Below, one piece after another: positions 10,520-64,000 of a stretch of 64,000 nucleotides of DNA. A program made the translations under genes and the position numbers. Every line of letters begins with the position of its first letter. Position 1 is the first letter of the stretch. Below the pieces are notes generated by a model, which searched no databases, was not told the DNA's origin, and worked only from the letters and a program-made list of their open reading frames with translations. This DNA comes from a virus: positions 1 through 64,000 of IMG/VR virus record IMGVR_UViG_3300045125_000064. One strand, written 5' to 3'.

Positions 10520-10790
10520 ACAATATTTGACATATCTTCTGTCAGAAGGAAGATTTGAAGAAATCAAACAGTACATAACTGAAGATTTTTATGATACTTT
10601 TGGCATAACGAAAAAAAGCGACAAAGAAGAAAAAAAGCCTGAACAAAAAGTGCAGAAAGATGTAAAATCTCTTAGCTGGGAAGAAATAAAGACTCTTGGA
10701 AAAGAGCTAGGATTAAACCCCAATCAAAAGAAAGAAAAACTTATTGTGCAGATTGAAGAGGCGTTAAATGCAAGAAAAGAAAAAGATTAA
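10509..10790 (+). CDS. Small protein with Rho-N/HeH-like nucleic-acid-binding motif
   Basis: LSWEEIKTLGKELGLNPNQKKEKLIVQIEE. Confidence 0.5.
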   Translation: MILKQYLTYLLSEGRFEEIKQYITEDFYDTFGITKKSDKEEKKPEQKVQKDVKSLSWEEIKTLGKELGLNPNQKKEKLIVQIEEALNARKEKD

Positions 10791-12033
10791 GATACTAACC
10801 CTGTCGGATGATCCAAGGTTTTTATCTGGTGTTGCAATACAAACAAGATATTTTATTGAGGGACTTCTTAAAACAGGAAGATTCTCTTTTATTTGTCTTG
10901 GTGGGCTTATAAAACATCAAGACAAAAGACCAGTTATGATTGATGAATGGGGTGAGGACTGGAGAATCATTCCAGTTGATGGATTTGGAGATGCAAACCT
11001 TGTCCGTTCTGTTATAATGGCAGAGAAGCCAGATATGTTGTGGGTTATGACAGATCCAAGATATTGGGACTGGCTATGGAATGTCGAGAATGAAATTCGA
11101 CAGTTCTGCCCAATTGTGTATTATCATGTCTGGGACAATTATCCAGCACCAAAATATAACAAGAAGTGGTATGATTCAAATGATGTTATCGTTTCCATCT
11201 CTAAATTAACAGAAGATGTTGTTCAACAACTTGCAGACTCAAAAGTTGATCAATTTTATATTCCTCACACAGTTGATTCATCAAAGTTTTTCTTGCATCC
11301 AAACAGATTAACTTTGAGAAAAGAAATAATTGACAGAGCAAAACTTGAACAAGATTGTTTCTTGCTGTTCTACAACAGCAGAAATATCAGAAGAAAACAA
11401 ATTCAAACATTGTTTTGCTGGGTTGGAGAATATAATAAGAATCACCCAGAACAAAAGGTGAGACTATTGGCGAAAACAGATCCAAGAGATCCACATGGAT
11501 GTGACTTGGTTAAAATTGTTGAGGATTTTGAACTCAACGATCAGGTCAGAATAATTGGAGACAGACTCCCTCCAGATAAACTGAATGAACTTTACAATGT
11601 CGCAGATGCCACAGTATTGATTTCAGATGCAGAAGGCTTTGGTGTTGCTGTTCTTGAATCACTGTTTGCAGGAACTCCAGTTATAACAACAAAGACTGGT
11701 GGAATGGTTGACCAATATGAAGATGGTGTTCATGGCTATGCAATTGATGTTGATCATACAATTGTTGGTGCTCAAGAAACTCCATACATCTATGAGGACA
11801 GAACAACCTTTGAAAGATTTGAGAAGGCAATCAATGATTGTTTCTTAAGCAGACAAAACAATGTTTGGGGAACAAAAGAGCATAGAGAAATGTGTGCAAA
11901 TCATGCATTGACCAACTTTAACATGGAAAAATATGTGGAAGAATGGGTCAAAGTCATTGATTTCACATATGAAAAATATGGTTCTTGGGAAACAAGAAAA
12001 CACTATAAACAGTATCAACTCTTTGAGGTATAA
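10768..12033 (+). CDS. Glycosyltransferase family 4 (GT-B)
   Basis: Intact 421 aa; SRNIRRK; LNELYNVAD..ISDAEGFGVAVLESLFAGTPVITTKTGG (EX7E). Confidence 0.92.
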   Translation: MQEKKKIKILTLSDDPRFLSGVAIQTRYFIEGLLKTGRFSFICLGGLIKHQDKRPVMIDEWGEDWRIIPVDGFGDANLVRSVIMAEKPDMLWVMTDPRYWDWLWNVENEIRQFCPIVYYHVWDNYPAPKYNKKWYDSNDVIVSISKLTEDVVQQLADSKVDQFYIPHTVDSSKFFLHPNRLTLRKEIIDRAKLEQDCFLLFYNSRNIRRKQIQTLFCWVGEYNKNHPEQKVRLLAKTDPRDPHGCDLVKIVEDFELNDQVRIIGDRLPPDKLNELYNVADATVLISDAEGFGVAVLESLFAGTPVITTKTGGMVDQYEDGVHGYAIDVDHTIVGAQETPYIYEDRTTFERFEKAINDCFLSRQNNVWGTKEHREMCANHALTNFNMEKYVEEWVKVIDFTYEKYGSWETRKHYKQYQLFEV

Positions 12034-12034
12034 T

Positions 12035-12331
12035 ATGCAAAAGTTAAAAAATCCAAACATGACTGTTGATATTGAAGGCACATATTATGAACTTTATGAT
12101 GGATATGGTGTGAAGAATTATCATAAAACAATTGATGAAGCAGAATTTGCTGATGCAGTTATTGAAGGACTGAATTCAAATAATCTTATTCATGATGATA
12201 ATAATATCTTTAGAAAAGAGAAGGTTGAAGATAAACAATTCATGAACGACTTCACAATTATGTGGGATGATCAGAGATATAAAGAGATGGTCGATATGTT
12301 GAAGTCATTAAGACCAGGTTTGTGGAGATAA
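12035..12331 (+). CDS. Hypothetical protein
   Basis: GAGG SD and a short intact ORF between the two GT4 genes. Confidence 0.55.
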   Translation: MQKLKNPNMTVDIEGTYYELYDGYGVKNYHKTIDEAEFADAVIEGLNSNNLIHDDNNIFRKEKVEDKQFMNDFTIMWDDQRYKEMVDMLKSLRPGLWR

Positions 12332-12333
12332 GA

Positions 12334-14792
12334 ATGAAAAAGAAAATTGTGATTTTTGGACCAGTTCTAAGTGTTTCTGGTTATGGCTATCAGGCCAGAT
12401 TTGCTCTGGAAAGTTTAAGAAGAAAAGAAGATATATTCGACATATATGTTATAAACACACTCTGGGGAGCAAATGGATGGATTCCAGAACAAACTGAGGA
12501 AAGACAATATATTGACTCTCTTATTCTCAAGACAAACAAATATCTTTCCCAACCAAATCAAGGATTTGATATTTCTCTTCAGATAACCATTCCAACAGAG
12601 TTCAAAAAAATGTGTCCATTAAACATTGGATACACAGCAGCAATGGAAACAGATAAGGTTGCTCCAGAGTGGATTGTTAATTGCAATGAAATGGACAAGA
12701 TTATTGTTCCATCAGAACATTCAAAGAAAACCTTGACAGATTGCTCATATGTTGGAATCAATAATCAAACAGGACAACAAGTTGATGTGAGACTCAATGT
12801 TCCTGTTGAAGTTGTTTCCTTCCCATTCAAAAATGTTGATGGATGTGAAGAAGTTAAAGAACTTGAGGACATAAAAACTCCATTCAATTTCTTGACAGTT
12901 TCACAATGGGGACCAAGAAAGAACATTGAGAACACAATTGTTTGGTTCCTTCAAGAGTTCCAGAATAATCCAGATGTTGGCCTTGTTCTCAAAGTTCATG
13001 GAGCAAATCCAGCAATTCCAGACAGATATAACGTTCTTGAGAATATTCAAAGAATCAAGAAACATGCTTGTCCAAATTCAAAGGCAAAGATTTATCTTCT
13101 TCATGGATATATGACAGAGGGACAACTTAAAACTGTTTATTCGTCTGAAAAAATCAAAGCAATTGTTCAGATATCCCACGGGGAAGGGTTTTGCGGATTA
13201 GATTATACTCCAATTATTACGAAAAAAGGAACAAAAAGATTAGATTCAATGTTGGTAGGTGATGAAGTTCTAACTCACAAAGGTAGATTCAAAAAAGTAT
13301 CTAAACTTTTAAGAAGAAATTATACAGGAGAGATGTATAAAATAACTCCATATAATACTCAAAATGTTGAACCAATTATTTTAACTCCAAATCACAATGT
13401 CTATGTTTACAACAAAAAAGATGACAATTTTGTTTGGAAAAAGACAGAGGATCTAACTAAAAAAGATATTTTATGTATTCCAAGACCATCTTTTCTGATA
13501 ATCTAAAAGAAATCAATATATTTGATTATTTAACTAGATGAAATGTGGTTGTTGAGAATGATGTAATAAAATTTATACATTCAAACGGTACTGGAAAGGA
13601 AATCAAGAATACTCTTAAACTAGATAAGGAATTCGCAAAATTATTTGGATATTATCTGTCGGAAGGTTGTGCTAGTTCATCCGATATTATATTTTCTATC
13701 CACGAAAAAGAGATATCCACTCTTGGAGAAGAAATTATTGATTGTATGAATAAATGTTTTGGATTAAACCAATATAAGTTCCAAAAACAAAATAACAAAA
13801 AATGTATTAATTTAGTCTTTCAATCAACAATAGTGTCTGATTTTTACAGAACTTTAGTGGCAAGGGAGCAAAAAATAAATATCTTAACAAAATCTTGTTT
13901 AAGACAGACAATGAATTTAAAGAGAATTTAATAACATCATTATTGAATGGAGATGGGTACATAGGGGATAAAGCAACAAATCCTTCAATAGAAATTTCTT
14001 TATCAAATAAAAAATTGCTAAGAGATGTTAAATTGTGGTTGTTAGAACTTGGCGTTATTTCAAATTTTGATAATTTTGTGAGAACTGGAAAAATTAAAGT
14101 GAGAGAAGAAAAAGAGATAGAATACACAATGGATGTTGAAAGATTAAGAATAACTCAAAAAGATTCTTTTGATATTATAATAAATCTTCTAAACAAGAAT
14201 CATCAATTTAATAAATTTAATAATTCTAACAAAAAATCTTTTTCATCAAATGTAAAAACTGAATTAAACAACAATATGTATTTGATGAAAATAAAAAACA
14301 TAGAAAAACAAGACTTTTGCGGAGAAGTATTTAATATATCTGTTGAAGATGATGAATCATATTGTACAGAAAACTTTATGGTGCACAATTGCCTCCCACT
14401 TTTTAGAAGCCGTTGAGAACAACCTTCCAGTTATCACCATTGAATATGGTGGTCAACTTGATTTCTTGAAATATTCAGACAAGAAGGGAAAACAAAGAAA
14501 AGGTTTCATCAAGGTTGATCATGATATCAAAAATGTGCATCCAGAAGCTGTCTGGCAAGGTGTTATCAACCCAGATATGACCTGGGCATATGCCAAGGAA
14601 TCCTCCTTCAAAATGGCTCTGAGGGCTGTTTATAAGGATCCTGGAATGGCATTGTCGATGGCCAAAAAGGTCAGAGAAGATTTCTTGGCATCATCTGGTG
14701 ATCTTTATGAGAAATTTGCAAATTTAATATACAAGAGAGATTCTAAATTTGCAGAATGGCTAGAGTCTATTAAAGCAGAAGAATGTCTATGA
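12334..14792 (+). CDS. Glycosyltransferase family 4 interrupted by an intein (frameshifted)
   Basis: GPVLSVSGYG, WGPRKNIE, SHGEGF|intein|CLPLFEAVENNLPVITIEYGGQLDF. Confidence 0.9.
13192..14389 (+). mobile_element. Intein with LAGLIDADG homing endonuclease (~400 aa)
   Basis: Starts C-GLDYTPIIT; block B LTPNHNV; LAGLIDADG motifs FGYYLSEG and SLLNGDG; ends VFNISVEDDESYCTENFMVHN followed by Cys+1. Confidence 0.93.
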
Positions 14793-15632
14793 TAATATTT
14801 ATTGCAGATCATCCATATCAAGAAAAAATGGTGGAGCAGAATACTGCGATTCTATTATTTTAGATTATTTAAAAAATAAAAATATAGAATGTTGTTTTGT
14901 TTCTTGTAATGAATTTAATAATAATTTAATCAATGCAGAAAAATATATTATTAGTAATTTTTACTTCTTATCACAAGAAGCTAAAAACTTTTTATCAAGT
15001 AAAGATTATATAATAATTGAACATGATTATAAATTTATTCAATCAAGAAATCCAATTTTATATTATAATTTTGTTGTAGATTCAAAAAAGTTAATAAACA
15101 TTGAATTTTATTACAAAGCAAAAATAGTATTTGCACAATCTTCTTTACACGAAAAAATATTAAAAGATAATTTGCCACTTGCTAATATTATTTCATTTAA
15201 AGGTTCATTCTTTTCTGATGATATTCTAAATTTTTTAGATACTTTAAAAAATAATAGTAAAAATAATAAATTTTGTATCGTTTATTCAAATAATCCTATA
15301 AAGGGCGTAAATGAATCAATTAGTTATTGTGTCGAACACAAAATTCAATATGATATATTAGAAGAAAAAATTATTATTCTTTTTTGGAAAAATTATCTCA
15401 TTATTATGGATTGGTATTTTTTCCACAATCTCCTGAGACATTTTCTAAATTATTGGCAGAAGCAAAATTCTTAATTTAAAAATTATAACAAATAAATTGT
15501 CTGGATTCATTTATGACTTTAAGAGTGTAACAATCTTTCCTATTCTTTGAAAGATTGTAGAGAAAAATAATTTGACTCTTTTATTGGAAGGGCTTTACAA
15601 AGAAAAACATAATTAAAATGGTAAACGATAAA
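14789..15632 (+). CDS. Glycosyltransferase-like protein (frameshifted)
   Basis: MIIFIADH..GGAEYCD N-terminus; IEHDYKF; FFPQSPETFSKLLAEAK-like C-terminal motif; lies within the GT cluster. Confidence 0.55.
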
Positions 15633-16461
15633 ATGAAAATAAGTTATATAATACCACACAATAACAGAGAAGAACTATTAGAATATAATTTAGTATCATT
15701 AACTAAACAAATATATAAAAATTTTGAAATTATAATAATTGATAATTCTATAAACAATAATAAAATAAAAGATTTATACAACAAGTATTCAAAAATACTT
15801 GATATTAAACTAATTTTTGTTGATCCCAAGAAACATCCTTATTATCACAATAGAGAACTTGAGTTTGTAAATCCTGCACTTCAACAAAATGTAGGTGTAA
15901 AAATAGTTCTGGTGATATAATTGTATTAACATCACCAGAAATAATTAATGCGAGAGAAAATACTTTATATATAAATGATTTATTTACAAAAGGTGTAGAT
16001 ATAGAAAAATTTATTTATGGATGGGTTGATGAATGTCCATATAATAATATAATTGAATCTTTTTAAAAGAGGATAATCTAAACTCCACTAATATAATAAA
16101 ATTATTTCCCACCCCATCAGAAGGCGCAAGATGCAGAGAAGAAACTTTTAGACCAGCAAATTATTTTTTGGGATGTATAAAAAGAGATTTTTTCATAAAG
16201 ATAGGTGGAATAGAAGAAAAATTTATGGCAGGAATGTGTTATGAAGACGATGAATTCTCAGAAAGAGTTATAAGAAATAATTGTGAAATTTTCTTATCAA
16301 GAAGAATAGCTGGAATACATCTAACACATCCGAGAGAATATCAAACAAAAATATATGAATTAATGAACAACAATTTTTTTATTTACAAAACAGAACATAA
16401 CTTAGTTGCAAATAATAATTTAGAGTGGGGAGATCAAAAAATATGTTGGACAATAAATTAA
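15633..16461 (+). CDS. Glycosyltransferase family 2 (frameshifted)
   Basis: MKISYIIPHNNR..L.SL.KQIYKNFEIIIID; QQNVGVK; IGGIEEKF..GMCYEDDEFSER; IHLTH. Confidence 0.85.
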
Positions 16462-17410
16462 AAATATTGGTTACTGGATGTCTGGGAGTTATTGGTTCCA
16501 AAGTATCAGAGATATTTCGACAAAAAGGACACATCGTATTTGGATGTGACTTGATGCACACAAATGAGAACTATGCTCATGGACTTGGAAAATTAGAAAA
16601 TGAAAATTATTTTAGAGCCGATATATCTGAATATCGACAAATAGAATATGTGATTGACTATTTTAAGCCTGATTTTGTAATACAATTGCGCAGCAGAGTT
16701 TGGTAGATGGAATGGTGAATATTTTTATGAAAAAGTTTGGAAAAGTAATGCTATTGGTTTGAAAAATATATTAAAACTTCAAAACAAATATAAGTTCAAA
16801 TTAGTGCACTGTTCTTCTTCTGAAGTATATTGGTGATTACCAAAGATATAATGTACGAAGATGTGATTAGTACAAATCCAATAAATCAATTAAACGATTA
16901 TGCGCTATCTAAGAGAGTAAATGAACGTACAAATTGCCAATGAAAGAATATTAAATGGCAATCAGGTTGTTATAGTAAGATTCTTTAATACATATGGACC
17001 AGGAGAGTGGTATCACCCATTCAGAAGTGTTAATTGTACATTTGTATATAATCTACTCCACGACAAAAGTCATTGTGTATCCAGAACATACAAGAACAAG
17101 CACATATATTTATGATGCAGTCAACACTTTCAGTAATATTGCTGAAAATTTTAAAGATGGAGAAATATATAATATTTCAAGTTCTTATAGACACACTATT
17201 CAAGAATTAATTGATTTATGTTTGAAATATACTAGCAAATCAGATAAATTAGTAGAATATCGAGATACTTACGAAATATTAACAACAAAGCATAAAATAG
17301 TAGATAATAGTAAATCTAGACTTGATTTAGAACATATAGATACTACATCGCTAGATCAAGGAGTTAAAAATACTGTAGAATGGATGAAACAATATTATAA
17401 AATAAATTAA
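16443..17410 (+). CDS. NAD-dependent NDP-sugar epimerase/dehydratase (extended SDR), frameshifted
   Basis: ILVTGCLGVIG (GxxGxxG), SSSEVY, NDYALSK (YxxxK), VRFFNTYGPGE, YNISS, SLDQGVKNTVEW. Confidence 0.88.
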
Positions 17411-25700: not shown

Positions 25701-28199
25701 AGAATATTGATGTTGAATTTGGTGAATATTTTTCAATAGATTTTAGAGTGCAGAATTTCTTTAATGAGGTTGCGAAATATTGCAACATGCAAGCTCTTGT
25801 TAATATCATAAATCAATATGACATTATGTTTGAATCTGAACCATGTTCACCAGCACATTCTGTCACAAATGATAATAATGTTCAAGATATAATTGATTCA
25901 TTAAAAGAATCTGGCAAAACAGATCAAGAAGCTCAAGATTATATTCTGGAAAAAATCAATCAAATATCAAGAAATATTCAATCAATTTGTGGATTGTTTG
26001 CAACAAAAGCATTCGATTTGACAGCAGGACTTCCACAATTGATCTCTCAACCATCTGCAAAAATTATCACAAATTATGTAAATGGAATTATGGACATATA
26101 TTATCGCATAAAACAAGATGATACAACTTATTATATTAAAACATATTTTGTTGAGAAATCAGAAGAACTTGTTCCAAAGAAATCTGACTGGAAAATATCA
26201 TTTGATATCATCAATGAATATGATACTGAGGAACAAGCACAACTTAAGAAAATATATGGCAAGGAATATGATGTTGCAATCTATAGTAGTGATAAACAGA
26301 TATTCTTTACAAAAGACGAGGCAGTGATATATCCAGAACAACTTTATCTGTCAAATAAATTTGATATAAGCACAACAGACTGGAAGCAGGTGGCAAGCAA
26401 TATAAACCAAAGTAATATTGTCCAGATTTCACTGACACCACAAGTTATTGAAGAAACATTTTCATCTTTGAGAGAATCTGCATTCAAGACATTTGCAGAG
26501 AAGCAAAACATGCCAAAGTCTTTGAGAGCAGACTTTGTTGGAGCAATATAAAGGCTGTTCAACAAGCGGCTCTTCCAAAGATGAGGCAAACATATAAATC
26601 ATATTCAGCAGAACTCCAGAAGTCTCTTTCGGATAATGCAAACGGACAAGATACAAACAACATTGACGCCATGCTTGCTCAACAACAAGAGATGAAAAAT
26701 CTATTTATTGACATTTGGTAAAAGGAATAAAATGCTAGGATTTCAAACAATACATCATTTTCTAAATGGATTCTCTTCAAAAGAGTTATTAAAAAGATTT
26801 GTGTTTATTAATCTTTTGGAAAATTTTAATTCTCTCAAAAATATCAATAATATAACAGTTGATGATGTTTATGTGAATTATCTATTTCAAAAACTTAAGA
26901 CTGTCCTAACAAAAGAACAGAGAATCCAACTTGTATTTTCTAGTATTTTGTATTATGATCAAAAATATGATTTTTCATCTCAATCTTATTTGGACAATTA
27001 TCATAAAGGGTTGAGAAATATAAAAGACATAATCTATGAGTGCATTCAAGAAGTTATTAATCTTCCATTCTATAAAGATTATATATCTCAAACAAAACCA
27101 GACATTTATATTCCCTATGATTCTGTTCCAAGAGATTCAAAATTCTTCTTATACAATGATGTTACAAAACTAAAACAACCTTCGTCATTTTCTTATACTG
27201 TTGATGACTTATTCTTTATTGATTATTCAATAACGGCAAAGACAAAAGAACAGTATAAAACTGTGAATGCGTCTATTGTTGAAATACAGAAAATGCCAGA
27301 ATGGTTTAAAGATATTATTAAGAGTGTTGCACAATATTGTGAATATAATGAACAATTCCTTGGTCCATTATCTTTTGTGTCTCCAATGGACTTAAGAAAT
27401 GCTTATAATCTTGGAGCTTCAACAGCTTTTTTAAATTTGAATGCTTTGATTTCTCTGGTTAAATATTATATTGAATTGCATGATGGAAGATTCAATATTG
27501 AACAAGCAAAAGAACTTGGACTTCTATATGAAAAAGAAAAGACTGAGAAGTTTTACTTTTCCATGAACATAACAAATCCTGGAGAGTTGATTGCAGAATC
27601 TGTTGCGATTAGAAGAATAATTGAGGCAACTCTGTTTGCAATCAAGAATGTCAATCTCTCATCCAGACTCAACATGAAACTTCTTCCATCTGATGACAAC
27701 TTCTCAGGATTGACACAACTTGTTTCTGGAACAAAGGAATTTCAATTGTTGCAGATAATGTATAAGCCACAAGCAATTTTCTCTGGAATTGTTGATCAAG
27801 AGACAATAAAGAAACAATTATCACAGATAAATCAAGAAATATATAATTTTAAAGAATTTCAATATACATCATATGAAAATGGTGTTGCAAATACAATTGT
27901 ATTCTTGACACTTTATGAGAATCTAAATTCAATGAAAAAATATAGCTTTGATAATTTTGATAACAAAATTCAACAAGCCGTTTTGAACATTATGACAAAT
28001 CAAGTTCCAATAATCATTAATGATCTTCTTGCTTTCAAGTTTATCAAGCCAGCATCAACAATCCTTGAGAACATCAATTCAGATGAAGCACTAAAAGATA
28101 ATGCAGCTTATCAAGCATCTCTTGCACAGTTTAATAACTTTGGGGAACAGCATATTTAGTATGCTGGGAGGTTACAGCAATTATAAGGAGATGCTATAA
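22753..28199 (+). CDS. Very large hypothetical virion-associated protein (~1800 aa if a single gene; frameshifted)
   Basis: Chain of contiguous + ORFs from 23133 to 28159 without clear internal starts; lies between the spike and gp25. Confidence 0.45.
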
Positions 28200-28594
28200 T
28201 GACAGACAAAGTTCTAAATGGTATGTCAGTGTATCTTCCAATTGTTTATGATCCTGTTGATGGACCATTCAAACTTAACAAAGATTTGAAGTCAACAATC
28301 CAAACAAACTTCAAGAACCTGTTATTTACACTTCCAGGAGAGAAAATAATGGATCCAGAGTTTGGAATTGGAATTCAAAGCATGCTATTTGATTTATATT
28401 CTTTAGATAGAATATCTGAATTAAAATCCACCGTCAATAAACAGATAAACAAATATATGCCATTTTTGTCAATTGTTGAATTCAATGTGGATGACTCAAA
28501 AATGAATGAGAACGCAATATTCTTGGAGATAAAATATTATATTCATCCATTGGACACTGTTGATGTTTTGAAAGAATTGTTGGTAAAGGAATAA
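28199..28594 (+). CDS. Baseplate wedge subunit gp25/GPW-like
   Basis: NFKNLLFTLPGEKIMDPEFGIGIQSMLF...QINKYMPFL. Confidence 0.9.
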   Translation: MTDKVLNGMSVYLPIVYDPVDGPFKLNKDLKSTIQTNFKNLLFTLPGEKIMDPEFGIGIQSMLFDLYSLDRISELKSTVNKQINKYMPFLSIVEFNVDDSKMNENAIFLEIKYYIHPLDTVDVLKELLVKE

Positions 28595-45849: not shown

Positions 45850-46896
45850 ATGGAAAAATTTGAACAAAATGACATAATAAGAAATACTATCATTTCATAT
45901 CCTTCCTACACAATTGATATGTATAATGATAGTATTTATCTTAATTCTGTCAGTTCAGAAGGAAACCAACAACAAGACAAAATATATCTAACAAGTCAAG
46001 TATCTTCTTCATACTTTAAAAGATATTTTTGCAGAACAGATGGGAATTCTGACACATATCCAGTGTATAGCAACTATGAAGTCGAGCCATTTCTAAATTC
46101 ACTTTATAGTTCTATGAATTATTATTCTGTTAAATCAAGATATTATAATCAAACATATTATTTTGACACAGGAAGCAATAAACTTCTTGCAAATTCGTAT
46201 TTTAATTTGATGAAAATAACTCCACTATTGTTTGGAACAAAGATAAGACCTGGTACAATCAATCTTGAATATTATTTCACTGGTTCTTTAATTTCGTCTG
46301 CAACAGATCACAAAAAAAATGGAGAAATAATTTCAAATTATGGGACAACAAGTGGAAGCGTTATAGGTATTGCTTTTTATTCTGAAGGATATATTCTCCT
46401 TACATCAAGTGTCGCATTAAATTCCGAATCAGAGTATTTTAAGATGCCAACTTCGTCCCTTGGAACACCAATGACTGATAATCCAAAATGGTGTTACTTT
46501 GGATGTTATCAAAATACAAACATTATAGATAATTATGCAATTGATAGTTCTTCTTATAAAATATCGTTTGAAGGTGTTAATGAAACACAAGTTATGACAA
46601 TGTTTGCTCATATGCCAAGAAATAAATATGCTTGGAGTAATAACCTTACATTTATGTCAAGTTCTCAAGTGTTTAAAACAACAATAGATTCAGTTAAAGA
46701 AAGTGATAAAGAATATATTTATGCAACTAATGGAAATATCACAAATTACTCCTCTTCTTATGATCCACAAACATTTTTGTCAAAAGTTCTAATCTACAAT
46801 CAAAACAAAGAACTTCTTGCTGTATGTTCATTATCAAAAAACACACTTAAGAGGCAGAAAGACAATTTTTCTGTTAAAATGACTCTTGACATATAG
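45850..46896 (+). CDS. Paralog of the preceding structural protein
   Basis: Intact 348 aa; GTKIRPGTI, GIAFYSEG, TFLSKVLIYNQNKELLAVCSLSK..KMTLDI. Confidence 0.65.
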   Translation: MEKFEQNDIIRNTIISYPSYTIDMYNDSIYLNSVSSEGNQQQDKIYLTSQVSSSYFKRYFCRTDGNSDTYPVYSNYEVEPFLNSLYSSMNYYSVKSRYYNQTYYFDTGSNKLLANSYFNLMKITPLLFGTKIRPGTINLEYYFTGSLISSATDHKKNGEIISNYGTTSGSVIGIAFYSEGYILLTSSVALNSESEYFKMPTSSLGTPMTDNPKWCYFGCYQNTNIIDNYAIDSSSYKISFEGVNETQVMTMFAHMPRNKYAWSNNLTFMSSSQVFKTTIDSVKESDKEYIYATNGNITNYSSSYDPQTFLSKVLIYNQNKELLAVCSLSKNTLKRQKDNFSVKMTLDI

Positions 46897-48397: not shown

Positions 48398-49470
48398 ATG
48401 ATTAGAATTGCCCACTTGGCTGATACACATATCAAAACTCTAAAAGACCACGACTTATATACCGAGAGATGTTTAAAGATTTAAAATTAAAGTTGGAAAA
48501 AGAAAAGCCAGATTTTATTATTCACTGTGGAGACATTGTTCATTCAAAGACAGTTATGTCTCCAGGATTGGTTCAATTGATATCAGAATTTCTGACAATG
48601 TTATCCGACATTGCTCCAACTTATCTTATTCTTGGAAATCATGATATAAACCTAAGAAATCCAGACAGAGAAGATGCAATTTCGCCAATTGTTTCTTTGC
48701 ATGAACGTATAACAGAATATCCAAGAATTAAATTACTAAAAGGATATCAAAAGTATATCTGGATTATGACTTTACTTTACATGCATTTTGCAGAACAGAT
48801 GAAGAGAACTGGAAGGGAAAACAAATAGACCTTGAAGAAGGGGTCAATATTGGCTTATACCACGGCTCTATTTCAGGATGCGTCACAGACTCAGGTTATA
48901 CTTTAAAAGACTCAGAAGAGCAAATAGACACGTTTAAAGCGATGGATTATTTGTTGCTGGGAGACATTCATAAAAGACAGCAGATGTAGGAAGGATGGAA
49001 CGGCATGGTATCCAGGCTCAACAATCCAACAAAACTTTGGAGAGGAAGAAAATAAAGGATTCCTTATGTGGAAATTCAGCATCCACTTCATTCTAGTCAG
49101 AATTTGTTGAGTAAAATCCTCAGCCATATAAAACTGTACATTATTGGATGAATATGGTCTTTGTCAAACTTATTTTGACCCAGATGCTGAAACAAAACCA
49201 AAGGTTCGTTTGCTTGTTCCAGAAGATTTAGCAAGGTAGACAAACAGGCCATATTAGAAAGCTGGAAAGATGAATGCTCAAGTGTTGAAATCAGAAACAC
49301 ATCGAAGAAGACTTGTTGGCAGAAGAAAAGCAGAGAGCAAAACAACAGTATTTGATGTTAACCAATATGTAGATAAATTTTTGAACAAATATGAGCAATC
49401 ATTTCAAGATGATGCAAAACTTATTATTGATGACTTAAAGAGAAAGAGCAAAGATTTCTTCATTAATGTC
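48398..49470 (+). CDS. sbcD: SbcD/Mre11/gp47-like metallophosphoesterase nuclease (frameshifted)
   Basis: IAHLADTHI, CGDIVH, LGNHD, LYHG, LGDIHK, YPGSTIQQNFGE. Confidence 0.88.
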
Positions 49471-51498
49471 TGTTTCAAGATGGAATGTGCTATCTTGTAA
49501 ATGGAATAACATGTTCAACTTTGGGAAGATAATGATATAGATTTACAAGATATAATTCACAAACTCTTGGTATATTTGGCAAAAATTACAGTGGCAAAAG
49601 CTCCATTGTTGAGACAATCTTATATTCAATTTATGGTATAACATCAAAGAATATAAAGAAGAACATAAATTATATAAATGATAAGAAAAACAATGCATTC
49701 ACAGAAGTAAAGATTCAAGCAGATGGAAAGATTTACACCATCCAAAGAACAATAGAGATAACAAATAAGAAAAAGGAAGAAGCAAAGTCAACTGTGGACT
49801 TCTTTATTGAAGATGGAATGATAACGCTGAATGGTGTTGACAAAAATGAGACAGAAAAAGCAATCATTGAAAAGTTTGGTTCTCCAGATTATTTTATGAT
49901 GAGTTCAATAATCACACAGTTCAATTCAATGCAGTTTGTTGAATCAGCCTCCACAAAAGAGAAAGAAATATTATCAAATTTTCTTGATTTGAAATCTTTG
50001 GACTTGTTGTTTGATGAGGCGAAAGAACTCTTTAAAAGAAAAAGAAAAGGTACTCGTTAAGCATTATGAATCATTAGATTTGCACAAGAAGCTGGAATTG
50101 ATTGAAGAACAACAAAAATTTGATTTTGATTCTGCGATATCTACTTTAAAACAGAAAATCATTGATAATAGCACTTGGCCAAAGAGAATATAAGACTTAT
50201 AAAGATTCTCAATCCTCAAGAGAAGAATACAAAACATATTTGACAAAGCATGGTGTTAAGGATATTGATATGTTTCTTCTTACATTAGAAGAATCAAAGA
50301 AAACGTACCAGCAATCATTGGATGAAACACTGCAAAAATGTGAAAAATTGAGAGATATTTTACAAAATATGAAAATTTATTAAAAGAAGTTAATGCGGAA
50401 GAAATCAAAAGAAAAATACAAAGCTTATAAGAAATTAGTAAATGAAAAAAGTGCTTTGCATGTTTCTTTGGATAGATTGAATTCAAAGAATTCTATTCTT
50501 TATAAGTCTTTTTCTGTGATAGATAAAATTCCATGTGAAAAGATTTATATAAAATATGTCCTCTGACAAAAACGCTATTGATGCGAAATGAATATGAAAA
50601 TAACTGTGATGGTATTAAAGAATATAATGAAGAGATATCTAAAATTGATGCAGAAATATCGAACAAATATGATAATATTGAAGAAGATATGAAGATGATT
50701 AAAGAGATGGAAGACAAATACAATGTTAAAAAGAATGAGCAAATTTCCTGTTTAAAAATATATCAAACTTGAAAGAACAAATATCTTTGATAGAAAACAG
50801 ATATAGTCACCTAAATTCAAATAAACATCTCGCCCCATCAGAAGAAGATAAACAAAATGATAAATTATATTCCTACGATAAATATATGAATAGTGTTGAG
50901 GAAAACAAAACACTAAGCAAAGAAATTTCAACTCACGAAGCCAAGAGAATATCTCTTCAAATTGAGAAGAAGAATGTAGAGGAAAATATATTAGAAAAGG
51001 ACAAAACATCGTATCAATTTACATTGTATGATGCTGTGTCAAAATTATTCCATAGTAATGGCATTGTTTTTGAAATAATCAAGGATTTCATACCCTTCTT
51101 AAATGAAAAGATTCAAACATTACTTCTAGGTGTTGTTGACTTCACTGTTTATCTTGAGGAACAAAATGATAAGCTTGAAATCTTCTTAAAACATCAAGAA
51201 CAGAATACAAGATTGATTGAACTTTGTTCCGGGTCGGAAAAGATGTTTGCTTCAATGGCAATAAGAGTTGCTTTAACAAAGCTGGGGAAATATACCGCTT
51301 TCAAGTCTATTTATCTTGGATGAACCTGCAACTTCATTGGACCAAGAACATATTATTCAGTTTGGAAGCATTCTAGAAATGATAAAGAGTGAATTTGACA
51401 ATATCGTCTTAATCACACACTTAGATATTCTGAAAGATTACGCAGACAAACAGATAAATGTTGGAAACAAGAATGGATTTGCTATTTTGGAGGACTAA
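49466..51498 (+). CDS. sbcC: SbcC/Rad50/gp46-like ABC ATPase (frameshifted; possibly fused to the SbcD part)
   Basis: WNNMFNFG, GIFGKNYSGKSS (Walker A), coiled coil, LCSGSEK (signature), YLDEP (Walker B), ITH. Confidence 0.88.
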
Positions 51499-53803: not shown

Positions 53804-55407
53804 ATGGTAACAGCACAAACAAATAAAGCATTTATAATCAATGAATTAAAAAATGTGGCAGAGATCCCATATACTTTTTGTTAAAATATGGCAAGATCTG
53901 CTCATCCAGAAAAAGGAACTATTCCTTTTAAACTATACGATTTCCAGAAAGATTGTATCGAAGACTTTATGACTCATCGTTATAATATTGTTTTGAAAGG
54001 TGAACAGCTTGAGCCTTCTCAACAACAACGGCAGGATATATTGCTTGGCTTATTCTGTTTAATAGAGATAAGACAGTTCTTGCTGTGGCAACAAAAGAAA
54101 CGGTTGCAACAATCATTGTGGAGAAAAGTAAAAGAAGATTATTAAATCATCCAGACTGGATGAAGATTGCACAACCACTTCTGCAAACAATACAGAGCTA
54201 CTAGAACTTTATAATGGTTCTTGGAGTTAAAGCTTCATCAACATCTGGTAGATACTGGTGTTTCTGAGGCTCTTCTTTATTAGTTATTGACGAAGTCAGC
54301 ACTTATTAAAAATATGGATGAAATTTGGACTGGTCTTTATCCAACTCTTGCTGTTGCTGGTGCTTGTATTGCAATTTCAACTCCTAGAGGTGCTCAAGGT
54401 TGGTTTCATAAATTTTAATACAGATGCAGAATTTGGCAAAAATAATTTCATCCAATAAAATTAATGTGGTATGTTCATCCAAGATAGAGATGAAAACTTC
54501 ATTGAAACAGAAAAGAAAAATATGTCTCCAAGGCAAATTGCACAAGAGTATATGTGCAGCTTCTTGGCTTCAGGTGATACGTTTATTGACCCTGACGATA
54601 TTCAGAGATTACAAAAAAGACTTGATGACCATAAAATTGCCCCATTACAGAAAACTGGAGATGGAAAGAATTTATGGATTTGGAAAGAACCAGAGGAAGG
54701 AAAAAATATTGCATTGGCGCTGACGTTTCAAGAGGTGATGGTGCTGATTATTCAACTGCACAAGTTATTGATGTTGATTCATATGAACAGGTTGCAGAAT
54801 TTGAAGGTCAAGTCGAAGAAAATATTTTTGCATCCATTTTGTATGAACTTGGAAAAATATTATAATAGCGCATTGATTAGTATAGAGAATTCAATGCAAG
54901 GTCCAGGTGTAATAAATAGATTAACAGATGATTTAGAATATACTAATATATACTGCACTAGGAAGTCAAATCATGATTATGTGCCTCATTATTTAACTTC
55001 AATGGGAGGCACTGAAATCGCTAAAGGTTTTTCTATGACAACTAAATCAAGACCATTGGTTTTATCTTTTATGGAAGAAGTTATTAGAAATGAACAAATT
55101 GTTATTAATTCTCCAAGATTAATTGATCAATTTAACACATTTGTTTGGGATGGAGATAAACCACAGGCAGCAAGAGACAAAAATGATGATCTCAGTTATG
55201 GCACTGGCAATTGCAATTTGGACAAGAGATAAAGCAATCTTCTCATCAATAAGAAATGGTAAGATGAACAAAATAATGATTCTTGCTTGTGTTAAAGATA
55301 GTAAAGATTTGGACACAAGAGTAACTGGAATGGTTGGATATAAACCAGAACCATCAAGACCAAAACCAGATAAAAGAAGTTATTATCTGTCCTGTTTTAG
55401 AGGTTAA
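53804..55407 (+). CDS. terL: Terminase large subunit (T4 gp17-like), frameshifted
   Basis: DPIYF, PFKLYDFQ, LLVIDE (Walker B), ISTPRG, AQEYMCSF, YCIGADVSRGDGADYS, NDDLVMALAI. Confidence 0.93.
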
Positions 55408-55412
55408 AATAA

Positions 55413-57462
55413 ATGGCGAATACAAGAGCAGGGTTAAGAACCTATAGAAATAATAAACAAAATACCAAAAATCAAGAATCACCTTTATATCAAAAGCTGA
55501 CAAAAATCTTTTCTGGTCCAATTGTTAACTATCGTTCCAGAATGGTAACAAAATAGAAAGAGAGAGATTGATAAATTTGGTAAGAAATTCAATTCAATGT
55601 CTGGCCAAAAGTATACAAGAAATCTTTATACTCCATTCGATTATATAAGAACATCTGTAATGTCTGCACAAAATAGACAGGAAAGATATGTTGATTTTGA
55701 TCAAATGGAATTTGATCCATTCTTGGCTTCTGCTCTTGATTTATATGCAGACAGTATTACAACACATACTGAAGTTTCTCCAGTTCTCCATATAGAATGC
55801 ACAAACGACGAGATTAAGAATATTCTTCAAACTCTATTTTATGATGTTTTAGCAATGGAATCAAACGCTTTCTATTGGGCAAGAAACGTTTGTAAATATG
55901 GAGATTTTTTCTTTATCTTGAAGTGGATGACACAGTTGGAGTTCAATCAGTTATTGCTTTACCTTCAATTGAAATTGAAAGACTTGAAGGAGAAGATGAG
56001 ACAAATCCAAATTATATCCAATTCAGATGGAATAATGGTGGCTTAACATTTGAAAATTGGCAAATTGCTCATTTTAGACTTCTTGGAAATGAAAAATATA
56101 ATCCTTATGGAACATCTGTTCTGGATCCAGCAAGAAGATTGTGGAGACAATTAACAATGATGGTTGATTCTATGATGGCTTATAGAATCACAAGATCAGC
56201 AGAGAAATTGGTATTCAAAGTTCCAGTTGGTGGTATAAACGAGGAAGATATTCCTGGAGTAATGGAAGCATTCATTTCCTCAACCAAAAGACACCAAATC
56301 GTTGACCCAGATACAGGAAGAATTGATCAAAGATTTAATCCTGTTTCGATTGAAGAAAATCTTTATTTCCCAACCGTTGGCGGTGAAGGCCCAACAGTGG
56401 AAACATTGACAAGCAGGTCAAAATCTAACAGCTATTGAAGATATTAAGATGTTAAAGCAAGCAATGTTTGCAGCTATTAAAGTTCCAGAAGCATATCTTG
56501 GTGGTGGAGAAAATCCAGAAGATCAAACAACTTTGACACAGAAAGAAGTTCATTTTACAAACACAATTCAGAGAATTCAAAGAGCAATAATTGAAACACT
56601 AGAGCACATTGCCAAGGTTCACCTTCTAGTAATGGGCTTTAGAGGTGATGATCTTCTATCCTTTAAACTAAAGTTCAATAATCCTTCAAAGATTGCAAGA
56701 ATGCAAGAATTGACTGCGTTCAAAGAACAACTGGATGTTGCAAGTGCTGCAAAGGGAATTAATATGTTCAGCAATCGTTACATCTACACTCAAATCTTTG
56801 CAATTCCAGATGAAGAGGCAAAGAGAATTGAAAGAGAAAGATTCTATGATATTCAAATTGAAGCTGCAATTCAAGCTTCTGCTCAAGAAATGGGTGGAGA
56901 AGGTCAAGAAGGCGCAATGGGCGGAATGGGAGCAGGTGGTTTGGGTGGCGATGAAATGATGCCATCTGGTGGTGATTTGATAGGCGATATGTCTCAGCTT
57001 TCATCAGAACCAGGGCCATCAGGAGAAGGTGGAGGAAGTGTTGAAACTGGAGAAGAGCCAACAGTTGACAAAGAAGCTCCATTGTTAGCAAGTCCAGGCA
57101 ATTTCCAGCCACAAGCTGTTTCACAAACTGTTGAAAGAGATTCTGATGGAAATATTGTTAAAATTCATCTTGGGAATAGTCACACTCTAACTCCAAAATC
57201 AAAAGGTAAAGTTTATAAGCCAGAAATTGTTGATTCAAGAAAGAATACTGGGCCATTAAATCGTTCAATGAAATACCAAATGGGTGCTGGTGTAAGTTCT
57301 AATTCAAATAGAAACATAAATCCTGGAACAAATGCGTTAAAGAGATTGTCTAAGCTCCAGGAAAACAAAGATGCTAAGAGTGATACTATTTATACTGACC
57401 TAACAAATTATTTTAATAATATGGAAACACAGTTGGAGAAAATAGATGAAGCTAAAGCATAA
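55413..57462 (+). CDS. Portal protein (T4 gp20-like) with low-complexity C-terminal extension, frameshifted
   Basis: DFDQME.DP.LASALDLYAD, RNVCKYGDFF, WQIAHFRL, PYGTSVLDPARR, YRITRSAE, FAAIKVP, IQRIQR. Confidence 0.92.
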
Positions 57463-58271: not shown

Positions 58272-58272
58272 T

Positions 58273-59165: not shown

Positions 59166-59291
59166 TATGATAGTAGGAATAAGAAAAACAGGTTTCCAAT
59201 TTTGGACACAAAAATGGTCTAAAAGACCCCCAACTAATTGCAAAAAAGGTTGCTGACTTCATACTTATATTATATAAAGAGAGGATAACAA

Positions 59292-59528: not shown

Positions 59529-59530
59529 TA

Positions 59531-60155: not shown

Positions 60156-60727
60156 ATGGAAGCAAGTAAATTAAGAGAAATATTAAAACCAATAATTCAA
60201 CAATTGGTTCAAGAAGAAGTTGAAAAGGCAATAAAATTATATGAACAGAAGAGTGCTGGAAAGAAAATGTTGGCTCTTCAAATGAAGAATTGCTAAAAGA
60301 GATTCAATCTCTAATAAGACCACTAGAAAAGAAACTAGATGGATTAACTGGCTCTTCTAACAAAACTTTAATGGCAGAGCAAAAACAGCAACAGCAAAAA
60401 GTTCCTCCAAAAGTCCAAGAACAGACTACACAGATAAGAAATAAATTTAGAGAACAAATGGAGTTGGAACGAGAAAAGAAAAATAAACAATTTGAAAATC
60501 TGATGCATTCAACTCTTCAAGTTCCCAATATCCCAGGTGTGAAAACTCCAAACAAAATTATGATGAATGAAGTTATGGATGATCTTGACGAAGATGGACC
60601 AAAGATGTTTGTCCAAGAGGGGCAAGAAGAACAATACGAGAGTTATGATCCAACACTATATGATGATGATGCAGAGGATATCGCAGAGATCTATGGTGAA
60701 ATGTGGAAGAAAAATAAATTAATATAA
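60156..60727 (+). CDS. Hypothetical prohead-associated protein (frameshifted)
   Basis: MEASKLREILKPIIQQLVQEEV; coiled-coil/acidic. Confidence 0.55.
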
Positions 60728-60736
60728 GAGGTTAAA

Positions 60737-60949
60737 GTGTCAAAAAGAAGAAAATCAAGAAATAATTATAATGTTCAGGTAACTTTGGAAGAATGCAGAG
60801 GAAGTGCAGAAAGAATGATTAAAAAATTCTGTAATAAAGTCAAAAAAGAAAAAATTCTTGAAGATTTTAGAGAAAGAATGACATATGAAAAACCTTCTGT
60901 CAAGCGAAGAAGAGAAAAAATACGAAGAAAAAAGTTGCTAAACAACTAA
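60737..60949 (+). CDS. rpsU: Phage-encoded 30S ribosomal protein bS21
   Basis: 70 aa; VQVT....SAERMIKKFCNKVKKEKILEDFRERMTYEKPSVKRRREK matches the S21 pattern (xxRxF.RK......E.R....YEKPS..R). Confidence 0.85.
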   Translation: MSKRRKSRNNYNVQVTLEECRGSAERMIKKFCNKVKKEKILEDFRERMTYEKPSVKRRREKIRRKKLLNN

Positions 60950-60985
60950 ATAATGAGAGACAGTAAAGCTAAGGAGATATAGGAA

Positions 60986-61453
60986 ATGTCAAATTTTGAT
61001 GGAGATAGAAGTGCTGGTTATTTTGCACCAGGTTTAGGTTCAGTTGGAGCATATCAGATATCTGGTATTCCTTATATCACTTCAAGCTTGTCAGTTCCAT
61101 CCGGTTCGTCTACACCATTGAAAATTCAGTTCCCTGGAGTATCAAATTATATTTATGTGAAAAACACAATGTCAACAGCATCTGCTGCTGCCCCAATAAG
61201 ATTTGGTTTTTCACAAAATGGTGTATCTGGCTCAAGCGCAACTCACTATATGGCATTATCAAATGGTGAATCATTTCAGGCAAATTGGAGAGTTGAAGAT
61301 ATATATTTAATTGCAATAAGCCCATCGGCCACAGGGTCTGCAATGGTTGCTGCTGGTATAACACCAATTCCAAGAGGAATTCCGCCAGTTGTTGAAGGTT
61401 GGACAAGTGGTTCAAGATGGAATAACTGGAGTGGTTCAAGCGGAATTGGATAA
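60986..61453 (+). CDS. Ser/Gly-rich virion structural protein
   Basis: AGGAG SD; PGLGSVGAYQISGIPYITSS; intact 155 aa. Confidence 0.6.
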   Translation: MSNFDGDRSAGYFAPGLGSVGAYQISGIPYITSSLSVPSGSSTPLKIQFPGVSNYIYVKNTMSTASAAAPIRFGFSQNGVSGSSATHYMALSNGESFQANWRVEDIYLIAISPSATGSAMVAAGITPIPRGIPPVVEGWTSGSRWNNWSGSSGIG

Positions 61454-61478
61454 TCAATAATATGGCTGGAGGTGGTAT

Positions 61479-64000
61479 ATGGCTTCTCAAAATTTCCAGC
61501 AATTTATTCTTAGCTTTTTAAGTGGTTCAATAAGTGGTTCGATTGGACCACATGCCTCTTCTCACTCTTTAACTGGTTCTGATCCAGTTTATCTTTACAA
61601 ATCACAAATATTAGATGCATCTTCATCAATAAATTATAATGCATCATCTTATAACATTGTCAACACTATTGCATTAAGAAACCCTCTAGATAATGGTTCT
61701 TTTGCTGCTGGTGGTATTCAATTTGATACAGCAAGCATATCTTCTGGATCTGTTGGAAAAAGTAATATGGAACGACCAAGATGGAACTTTGGAGTTTCAA
61801 CTAAAAGGCGGAAATGTTACTCTTCAAATTGGTCAAGAACAACTTATTAGAGTTGTAAATAAAACAGGTGTTGATATAGCTAACGGTACATGTGTTTACC
61901 TTGATGGAGCACAAGGACAAAGACCAAAAGTTTCTCTTGCGAAAGCTAATGCAGAGTTAACATCTGGAAGAACTCTTGGCGTTGTAACAGAAACAATAGT
62001 GAACAACCAAGAAGGATTTGTAACAACTCAAGGTCTTGTGAGAGATATAGATTTATCAGATTATGATGAAGGTGATACATTATATCTTTCTCCAATAACT
62101 GCTGGAGCTTTCACGAAGATTGAACCATCTGCTCCAAATCATAATGTTTTCATTGGCATTGTTGTTGTTGCAAATCCAAATGGAGTTATGTGGTGTCATC
62201 CACAAAATGGTTATGAACTTGATGAACTCCATGATGTTAAAGTAACAAACAAGCAGAATCTTGATATTTTGCAATATGATTCGGGAAGTTTATATTGGAA
62301 GAATGTCGCTGCATCTTCATTGAGCGTTGCAACAGCTTCTTATTCTTTAACTTCTTTATCATCAAGTTATGCAACAACATCAAGTTATGCATTTTTATCC
62401 AATACAGCCTCTTATGCATTATCTGCTGGAACTGCAACAGATAACACAAGATTGGCATTAACTGGCGGGACATTAAGTGGCAATGTTGGTATGACTGGAG
62501 CATCTTCATATTTAGGAATAGGAATAACCACACCTTCTGCGCCTTTAGATATACGCAACTTTGTAACATATCGCAATACTAATGTATCCCAGCTTCAAGT
62601 TTGTACTGCTCCAGGACTTGTGCAAGAGAATGGGGCATTAGGTTCAGCAGATGCAACTATTTTGACTACATATTTGGGAAAGTTTAGTATTTACAAGCGC
62701 AATGCTACAGGAGATTTTGCAGCATCAGATTTAGTGTGGGATGTGGATTCGTCTGGAAACGTGGTTGTTGAAAAAGGGGACGAAACTGTTGGTCTTATTA
62801 AACTTGCTAGGATTGGTAAGGTTGGTATTGGAACAACAAGTCCTCAAACTCCGTTAGATGTACGAGGCGTTACAACATATCGTAATACTGGAGTAACTCA
62901 ACTTCAAGTTGGTATTGCGCCAGCATTGATGCAAGAAAATGGTGCTCTCGGCGCAAACGACTTTTTTGTTATTAGTACATATAATGGAAAAGCTCTTTTT
63001 TATAAAGGAAATAGATCAGGAAGCTTGGCAACTTCAGATCTTAAAATGACTATTGACAGTTCTGGCAAGTTACAACTTGGAGGATCCGCAGGATTAGATT
63101 ATGCCATTGCAACAACAGCCATTTTACATCTTCCATCTGGTTCCACAGCAGCTTCAACTGCACCATTAAAGTTTACTTCTGGTTCATTGATGACAGCAGC
63201 AGAAGCTGGTGCAGTTGAATATGATGGAGATAAAGCATATTTAACCATTGCAACAGCAACAGCAAGAAAAGAAATAGCTTTATGCGATTCAACTTTAACT
63301 TCTGGCTCTCTTGTTATTGGTACAACCAATGGAAGATTAACATCATTAGTTGGTGGTCTGCCATTATCATTAGGTGGCACAGGAACAACAGGTTCATTTA
63401 CTGCTGGTTCTGTTATATTTCATGATGGAGTAAAATATACTCAGGATAACAGCTATTTTTATTATGATAGATCAAACAAAAGACTTGGGGTTAATCTTTC
63501 TGGTTCAGCACCATCAGCAACAATCCATTCATCTGGTTCAACAATATTAAAGGATGGACATTTGATATTTTCAAAAGCTTCTGGATATGGTATTAAAGTT
63601 GACGCAGAAACTCCAGCGTCAGCATCTTTTGGATGGAAAGATCTTCTTGGAGATATACAAGTCAGATCTGGGCAGCTTGATCCACCAACATGGACAGTAT
63701 TCAGAACAAATGTTAATGCCTTTCAGCTTGTCAATGCGCAAACTCAAGTTTTTAATATTTTCCATATACCACACGATTATGTGCCAGGAACAGATATGTT
63801 TGTCCATGTTCATTGGGCACAAAATGTCGTTGATACTGGCGGACCTGCTGGCACACCTGGAACTGCTGAATGGAACTTTGATATATCTTATGCTAAAGGA
63901 TATGGAACTGCTGGCGGATCATCTGATCCATTTCCTGCAACAAAAACAATAACAATCACACAGCAAGCGTCAACAACACAATATGGACATATGATTGCAG
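61479..64000 (+). CDS. Fibre/decoration protein (tail or capsid fibre), truncated at the window end; frameshift ~61760-61810
   Basis: Frame open from ~61815 to the end: GFVTTQGLVRDID..Y.EGDTLYLS, LDELHDV..LQYD...WKN, TASYA-type repeats, GIGTTSP repeats, FHIPHDY. Confidence 0.75.
62512..63072 (+). repeat. Tandem duplication of an ~84-aa fibre module
   Basis: 62512-62763 LGIGITTPSAPLDIRNFVTYRNTNVSQLQV..QENGALG..SDL...DSSG versus 62821-63072 VGIGTTSPQTPLDVRGVTTYRNTGVTQLQV..QENGALG..SDL...DSSG. Confidence 0.85.

Follow-up and report, generated by a model that had tools for sequence, protein, structure and literature searches.

Order-specific Ser/Thr-Gly/Ala-Ser motif in outward-facing virion proteins of an aquatic T4-like phage clade: a possible glycosylation sequon that co-occurs with a tandem GT4 pair

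In Gram-positive bacteria, serine-rich-repeat adhesins are primed by GtfA/GtfB, an adjacent two-protein system of glycosyltransferases (GTs) of family GT4 that, like SdgA/SdgB, O-glycosylates serine in S-A-S or S-x-S repeats in the cytoplasm. The Bacteroidota have a general O-glycosylation system that acts in the periplasm on the sequon D-[S/T]-[A/I/L/V/M/T]. Among viruses, virions of mycobacteriophages Che8, Corndog and Myrna are O-glycosylated by phage-encoded GTs (Freeman et al. 2023, as cited in PMC12619734); the glycans there are reported to be chemically demonstrated and to lie at the C-termini of capsid and tail-tube subunits. The chlorovirus PBCV-1 glycosylates its capsid with virus-encoded GTs (PMC9614988). 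Here we analyse a window of 64,000 nucleotides, the first 64 kb of the 172,865-bp IMG/VR virus record IMGVR_UViG_3300045125_000064 (labelled G000; estimated completeness 76%), from an uncultured T4-like aquatic phage that is a member of the 'Far-T4' clade. In this phage and its relatives, the tripeptide Ser/Thr-Gly/Ala-Ser is about three times too frequent in outward-facing proteins (tail, baseplate, fibre and head), and the same genomes carry a tandem pair of GT4 genes (GT4_1, 10768-12033; GT4_2, 12322-14792; both on the + strand, as are the M78-like, GT2, epimerase, baseplate-module, 45850-46896, jellyroll and fibre genes described below). We tentatively propose, at somewhat below even confidence, that the motif is an acceptor tag O-glycosylated by the GT4 pair on virion proteins.

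With the mycobacteriophage system, the locus shares phage-encoded GTs and a proposed sugar coat on outward-facing structural proteins. In the present clade of T4-like myoviruses, by contrast, at least a dozen different proteins carry the putative sites as a short internal motif, two tandem GT4s would be the enzymes, and the system is known from sequence; the C-terminal capsid and tail-tube sites have no counterpart, and only a 155-amino-acid (155-aa) jellyroll protein has a conserved C-terminal site. With GtfA/GtfB the locus shares two adjacent GT4-fold genes, found in all seven pair-bearing phages described below, and the TASY/SASY repeats of the fibre resemble the dipeptide repeats of the adhesins. 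Unlike GtfB, which is non-catalytic, both phage GT4s keep the EX7E motif, and their substrates would be folded virion proteins, not exported low-complexity adhesins. Family models place the phage enzymes outside the GtfA/GtfB type: TIGR02918 scored 18.8 bits against a cut-off of 574.6 and DUF1975 was lacking, the NCBIfam matches to TIGR02918 and NF047880 were weak, and similarity to GtfA/GtfB was no better than to any GT4. As in the Bacteroidota system, a three-residue O-glycosylation sequon would operate on many unrelated proteins, and at least one clade host is a Flavobacterium; unlike in that system, the phage proteins stay cytoplasmic and the clade hosts span three phyla. The Bacteroidota sequon itself, D-[ST]-[AILVMT], is not enriched in the virion module of the window (44 against 35.2 expected). 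With PBCV-1 the proposed system shares virus-encoded, host-independent machinery and non-canonical sequons on a capsid protein, and GT4_1 matches PBCV-1 B736L in the PDB (E=2.7e-7). PBCV-1 differs in being a eukaryotic virus with N-linked glycans on one major capsid protein.

The first-pass annotation of the window, made from its letters, had noticed [S/T]-[G/A/S]-S in putative surface proteins, and its five hand counts proved exact on recount: seven in 155 aa (60986-61453), six in the first 95 aa of the fibre (61479-), seven in 173 aa (44767-45288), nine in 348 aa (45850-46896) and six in 209 aa (28600-29229). Its low counts elsewhere were also right (none in the GT4, one each in RuvC and the gp6-like protein). 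Each motif-rich protein exceeds whole-protein shuffles by 3-5x. The six cited proteins together hold 48 sites; local shuffling within windows of 10 or 20 residues gave 16-18, and not one of 2000 rounds came to 48. Because the motif had been picked post hoc, we added unbiased tests. A ranking of all 8000 tripeptides in 71 open reading frames (ORFs) between 28 and 77 kb placed SGS first (26 against 6.6 expected), TGS second (21 against 4.7), TAS fourth (17 against 4.2) and SSS fifth, with P of about 1e-8 to 2e-6 for SGS, TGS and TAS; nothing comparable emerged from the non-structural ORF set. Across the window, the baseplate and fibre modules contain 75 [ST][GAS]S sites where 24.2 are expected (3.1x, P=1e-16), the terminase/portal/protease block contains 1 (2.5 expected) and the rest contains 11 (7.8 expected), so that in the structural versus non-structural comparison that the annotation had proposed the excess is confined to virion modules and survives shuffling.

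Because orderings of the same three residues share one expectation under any composition model, permutations provide a control for residue content. In the virion module, TGS accounts for 20 of 53 T/G/S permutations (null 1/6, P=2e-4) and TAS for 16 of 44 (P=1e-3), whereas the window's other genes are at the null. The motif serines use both TCN and AGY codons, and the codon pattern is frame-specific (63 occurrences in frame; 2 and 5 in the two alternatives), which indicates that selection acts on the protein and rules out a cause at the DNA level. The flanks of 560 sites from five genomes are enriched in W, V, F and I just before the motif (position -1) and in F, Y, A and L just after it (+1), with E, K, R and P depleted. 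Of the sequon first suggested, [ST]-G-S and [ST]-A-S hold up and [ST]-S-S is weaker; hydrophobic-[ST]-[GA]-S-hydrophobic describes the motif better.

We then scored the core motif [ST][GA]S in relatives. GT4_1 and GT4_2 are adjacent in seven phages: G000, three further IMG/VR genomes (G001-G003), and the cultured Flavobacterium phage immuto, Rhodothermus phage RM378 and Microcystis phage Mel-JY01, which are the three cultured clade members. The clade hosts belong to the Bacteroidota, Rhodothermota and Cyanobacteria; the capsid protein of immuto is 49% identical to that of the window phage over the aligned half. All seven pair-bearing phages show the excess, and, in the co-occurrence check that the first reading had called for, five T4-like phages outside the clade and two pair-less relatives inside it do not. 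In four relatives, baseplate, fibre, tail and head bins are enriched 2-4.5x and bins with replication and metabolism genes mostly stay close to 1 or lower; RM378 and Mel-JY01 reach 2.3x overall, with bins up to 5x. Across 80 related IMG/VR loci, the core motif occurs 1649 times against 708 expected (2.33x), with permuted-class controls at 1.36x. The order preference recurs in the seven genomes, where TGS makes up 270 of 972 permutations (28%, null 17%) and SGS 328 of 645 (51%, null 33%), whereas five phages without any GT4 are at the null (TGS 14%, SGS 33%).

Orthologues allow the same protein to be compared with and without the pair, using T4, Acj9, S-RIM2, Marzo and CPX as controls. Sheaths carry 38 sites against 12.1 expected in pair-bearing phages and 8 against 6.8 in controls; the corresponding values are 18 against 6.9 and 2 against 3.6 for major capsid proteins, and 17 against 3.4 and 1 against 0.9 for the neck protein gp13. 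Portal (3 against 2.9), prohead protease (1 against 1.2), terminase (0 against 1.5) and NrdA plus RNase H (0 against 1.7) are at chance even in pair-bearing phages. The sites are also localized within the affected proteins: on alignment, 37 of 38 sheath sites fall within residues about 60-340 of T4 gp18 or in insertions in that stretch, which we take to be the outward domains I/II of the sheath, and every one of the 18 capsid sites falls within residues 132-238 of T4 gp23 or in insertions. The sheath or capsid orthologues have few motif columns in common, indicating that density is kept while site positions turn over. Taken together, outward-facing virion proteins across the clade, namely baseplate proteins, fibres, outer sheath domains, the variable capsid region, the neck and the jellyroll protein, contain hydrophobic-[Ser/Thr]-[Gly/Ala]-Ser-hydrophobic too often and in a specific residue order, and the excess spans unrelated folds (jellyroll, LamG, sheath, HK97-type capsid and fibres).

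Phages that lack the pair set the limits of this association. No PF00534 gene was found in T4, Acj9, Marzo, CPX or S-RIM2, and their observed/expected ratios for the core motif are 0.66 (0.52 for 29 annotated structural proteins of T4, 13 against 25), 0.74, 1.2-1.3, 1.32 and 1.58, respectively. T4 is depleted in Thr-Gly-Ser, with 2 of 63 T/G/S permutations where about 10 are expected. S-CBS4, from an independent lineage, has no excess, and its GT4 is distant (only 23% identical). The gp23 and gp20 trees place the pair-bearing phages together in a single clade (100/100 support), so the contrast with the other T4-like phages counts as one event. A search of IMG/VR for a close relative without the GTs found none among relatives at least 93% complete, as four of four carry tandem GT4s. 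Within the clade, two deposited huge phages bear on the question. The capsid protein of LR756508 (484 kb) is of the Far-T4 type (E=3e-189), and the phage nests with immuto, Mel-JY01 and RM378 (91/89 support); it has a GT4_1-like gene only and no GT4_2, and its core motif is near the null (194 against 139, 1.39x; TGS share 0.19), with 0 and 1 site in two 824-aa sheath paralogues and 1 site in the capsid protein. LR756511 (595 kb), whose capsid protein is 33-47% identical to those of Far-T4 members and contains no site, has no homologue of either pair GT4, carries two other GT4s near its head genes, and is without excess (1.31x in the 395 kb examined). Inside the clade, therefore, the excess disappears where the pair is absent, as one or two events in atypical phages of 484-595 kb. 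In LR756508.1, at 202463-208426 and 145781-149428, the two sheath paralogues stand in tandem and the portal gene matches as three pieces set apart from one another, a sign of possible introns or inteins.

At the GT locus itself, GT4_1 (421 aa) is a GT-B glycosyltransferase that belongs to the GT4/Glycos_transf_1 family (PF00534, E=3.6e-17, 62.9 bits against a cut-off of 26.4), scores over the cut-off of PF20706, and has an intact EX7E motif (E289-GFGVAVL-E297). GT4_2 contains a LAGLIDADG intein (matches to Intein_splicing, Hint and LAGLIDADG_3) and is spread over several frames owing to assembly frameshifts. Its N-extein shares 44% identity with the second GT4 of the tandem in G001-G003, and at the extein junction (EGF|C...FLEAVENNLPVI) the spliced reading EGF|...FLEAV gives EX7E across the splice. 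The intein-split window copy has no direct PF00534 match; its orthologues in G001-G003 and in a further genome, G027, score above the cut-off. More than 5900 homologues of GT4_1 occur in metagenomes, the best-scoring among the matches listed being 45-51% identical, which is near the 47-63% identity of major capsid proteins among the nearest relatives. This breadth, together with the intein in one copy, indicates an important function, and judged by sequence the pair looks essential or important. Downstream lie a frameshift-fragmented GT2-family glycosyltransferase (15618-16461; PF00535, Glyco_transf_7C and NCBIfam GT2 matches) and a fragmented NAD-dependent nucleoside-diphosphate (NDP)-sugar epimerase/4,6-dehydratase (16419-17410; PF01370/PF16363 in the N-terminal part, dTDP-glucose 4,6-dehydratase in the C-terminal part). 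Of the locus as first annotated, the two GT4s, the GT2 and the epimerase were thus recovered, and the methyltransferase had no match in the frames tested. The syntenic locus of immuto encodes, in order, GT4, GT4, a hypothetical protein, GT2, an aminotransferase, a methyltransferase and a mannosyltransferase. In Mel-JY01 (PP395634.1), a 1234-aa ORF with a GT4 domain at about 3-8.5 kb adjoins a 508-aa protein with 14 sites in a motif-rich, structural-looking block, and may be a virion-module-encoded GT.

Immediately upstream of the pair, an M78/IrrE-like metallopeptidase gene (9638-10519), which is also conserved there in G001-G003, heads an overlapping operon that continues into the GT4 genes, and a putative late-promoter motif, ACTATTTA, lies 22 nt upstream of it (9608-9615; feature 9608-10519). 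The motif heads the GT operon in G000 and G003. Its five copies in the window are no more than chance, and, given that it stands at the GT operon only in these two genomes, it is weak evidence for late timing.

In the reading that we favour, the tandem GT4 pair would recognize the motif and O-glycosylate Ser/Thr of virion proteins in the cytoplasm; the sugar would come from, or be lengthened by, the GT2 and NDP-sugar enzymes encoded next to the pair, a set that differs from phage to phage. The reading draws on these observations: the motif is in excess, only exposed virion proteins are affected, both the excess and the GT4 pair are conserved in the clade, and the two co-vary across phages; from this we infer that the pair acts on proteins and uses the motif as its recognition element, and likewise which residue would be modified and when. 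The sequon reading fits every test run here, in a correlative way, and we rank it first while still giving it less than an even chance. The virion-glycosylation proposal of the first-pass annotation stands in so far as the excess is real, ordered, restricted to exposed proteins, conserved in the clade and co-occurs with the pair; it is weakened in that part of the signal comes from classic fibre repeats and several sites are invariant within families.

Several observations count against glycosylation at the motif. The best named relatives of GT4_1 are BshA and MshA, which glycosylate small molecules, and GT4s that glycosylate proteins matched weakly, so its sequence does not name the acceptor; a domain search detected no protein-substrate domain such as DUF1975 in the GT4 proteins. 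In immuto, G001 and G002, ACTATTTA does not occur in the 8 kb that precede the GT block. The sheath and capsid protein of RM378 show no excess (1 site each). Many fibre sites sit in repeats (VSGSL or VSGSLxV, GSFSGSFxGDGSGLTGI and TASY/SASY heptads) that could be purely structural. In the family of the 45850-46896 protein, every member has 7-13 sites, and 3-4 of the nine sites are invariant; in the 155-aa family, motif Ser/Thr residues are not more conserved than the remaining Ser/Thr. The link between GTs and motif is correlative, with about two phylogenetic contrasts, and these are not cleanly 'GT-less', as LR756508 keeps a GT4_1-like gene and LR756511 has other GT4s. Finally, we found no literature report of a glycan on any virion of these phages; a literature search likewise returned no published description of the motif.

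Many of these points are what would be expected under a strong rival explanation, which we place second and regard as doubtful but substantial: the motif would be an unmodified, lineage-specific structural or assembly element, such as a loop-to-strand cap or turn in beta-rich outer domains and fibre repeats, and the GT4 pair would act on something else, for instance a glycolipid, a small molecule or a glycan of the host envelope, and travel with the motif only by shared ancestry. Consistent with this explanation, the hydrophobic flanks and the depletion of charged residues and Pro resemble beta-strand edges, the fibre repeats are regular, 3-4 sites per family are invariant across 24-55% identity, the pair-bearing phages all belong to one clade, and the nearest characterized GT4s act on small molecules. 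A purely structural element would not readily account for the beta-rich virion proteins of T4, Acj9, Marzo, CPX and S-RIM2, which have no order preference, nor for the sheaths of LR756508, which are in the same clade and equally large (824 aa) yet hold only 0-1 sites. Also against it, sheath and capsid sites turn over in position with density kept, the excess spans unrelated folds, and in one good structural model, that of the 155-aa protein, no site is a two-residue hairpin turn.

An excess that appears in exposed proteins of unrelated kinds, at sites that turn over in position, and that is lost in LR756508 and LR756511 is the signature of a factor acting in trans, but does not itself name the GT4s. 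The motif might instead be read in trans by another clade-specific factor, through some other post-translational modification or an assembly chaperone, with the GT4 pair unrelated; the M78-like peptidase gene, conserved just upstream of the pair in G000-G003, fits such a scheme. We consider this improbable, as the GT4 pair is the only clade-specific enzyme set found to co-vary with the motif and no other candidate enzyme was identified.

Phage GTs commonly modify DNA (PMC12619734), and the locus could in principle act like the T4 alpha- and beta-glucosyltransferases, leaving the motif unrelated. DNA glycosylation by this locus is unlikely, markedly more so than a different factor acting in trans. 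Immuto has a syntenic GT locus, and its DNA, analysed by liquid chromatography with ultraviolet detection and tandem mass spectrometry, yielded only dA, dC, dT and fdPreQ1, with no glycosylated nucleoside (bioRxiv 10.1101/2023.04.13.536721). A ThyA-family hydroxymethylase (PF00303) is absent from G000-G003, G027, Mel-JY01 and RM378, the T4 control being detected; TGT/DpdA was not found in G000; and the putative late-promoter motif at the head of the window's GT operon also speaks against a DNA target. A chance or compositional artefact, suggested by the choice of motif after the sequence was read and by the richness of the proteins in S, T, G and A, is refuted by the unbiased ranking, the local shuffles, the permutation control, the 80 loci (1649 against 708), six further genomes and eight null control genomes.

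The motif-rich proteins of the window are mostly baseplate and fibre components. The baseplate module begins with a gp25-like wedge subunit (28199-28594; phrog_261/43) that has no motif. It is followed by a motif-rich baseplate protein (28600-30018) encoded by one frameshift-split gene with 6+3+3 sites, whose pieces match a contiguous stretch of G002 at about 93.6-95.0 kb, and by a gp6-like wedge subunit (30266-31813; phrog_219; 1 site against 1.3 expected). A LamG/ConA-like baseplate protein (32103-34881; PF13385), also frameshift-split, has 5+5 sites; the LamG domain named in the first-pass annotation is present in 32103-33359, and the G002 orthologue is a 1234-aa ORF with 9 sites against 1.6 expected. 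Further along lie a baseplate-module protein with 7 sites against 1.9 expected (37020-38660), a 173-aa protein at the end of the module with 7 against 1.7 (44767-45288), which has a homologue in the G002 baseplate block, and the 348-aa protein with 9 against 2.2 (45850-46896), for which an AlphaFold model from 7 sequences reached a predicted local distance difference test score (pLDDT) of only 38. Most baseplate-module proteins had no match in PHROGs. Past the window, G000 109566-110060 encodes a 164-aa protein that lies apart from the structural modules and holds 8 [ST][GAS]S sites where 2.6 are expected; it may be an unrecognized virion protein.

The 155-aa virion protein (60986-61453; 7 sites) offers the clearest structural view. 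It has 148 metagenomic homologues, no Pfam or PHROG family, and no match to deposited phages by tblastn. Its predicted model is a jellyroll (pLDDT 73, core 85-92) that, on structure comparison, resembles Ena spore-appendage subunits, ExsF and chain H of the cyanophage Pam1 capsid. Mapping the motif onto this model, as had been suggested, placed all seven sites in loops, at loop-strand boundaries or in disordered termini. Three of the seven sites are kept in 16-21 of 21 homologues and four are lineage-specific. The most conserved segment of the family alignment is the predicted-disordered C-terminal tail NNWSGSSGVG (consensus NNWSGS[SA]G[VI]G), which from its sequence looks like a docking or modification peptide. 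The adjacent tail fibre (61479-64000, running on to 64212 beyond the window) has 6+13 sites; an indel in the A5 run around 61755 puts its N-terminal 95 aa in a different frame. A bS21-like ribosomal protein gene (60737-60949; weak PHROG match) separates the prohead-protease region from the jellyroll and fibre genes.

The remaining window content is that of a T4-type phage. Nearly all genes are on the + strand, GC content is about 31-35%, and the T4-type core genes found are the gp25-like and gp6-like baseplate wedge subunits, RuvC, primase, SbcCD, endolysin, terminase and portal, with the major capsid protein and sheath genes located just past the window end. A megablast search of the window against deposited phages gave no match, and the match behind the 'late sigma factor' of the first-pass annotation is weak (E=0.003). 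Many essential genes are frameshifted: a break at 56.4 kb divides the portal, another at the A5 run divides the fibre, and SbcCD is in many pieces. SbcCD (48400-51323), terminase/portal (54471-57462), the fibre (61479-61850) and the GT2 and epimerase (15618-17410) are all broken into overlapping frames. Because orthologues of the broken genes are intact in G002 and frames switch at homopolymers, in at least one case demonstrably (the A5 run near 61755), these are indel assembly errors in the record. Several of the proteins first annotated are therefore pieces of longer genes, and ORF-based gene counts are inflated. The same two observations rule out an alternative genetic code as the cause of the fragmented ORFs.

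Even as a purely structural element, the motif would mark exposed virion domains in a clade-specific way and would call for an explanation. It is conceivable, although we would not yet call it probable, that this aquatic T4-like clade, abundant and ancient and with hosts in the Bacteroidota, Rhodothermota and Cyanobacteria, uses a conserved two-GT4 pair to build an O-glycan coat on most of its outward-facing proteins at hydrophobic-[S/T]-[G/A]-S-hydrophobic. If so, this would be the first described sequon-directed, particle-wide protein glycosylation system of tailed phages, and it would provide a sequence rule for predicting exposed and modified phage proteins. A very abundant group of aquatic phages would then coat the whole particle with self-made sugars, with consequences for adsorption, the stability of the particle, grazing, decay in water and detection by host defences.

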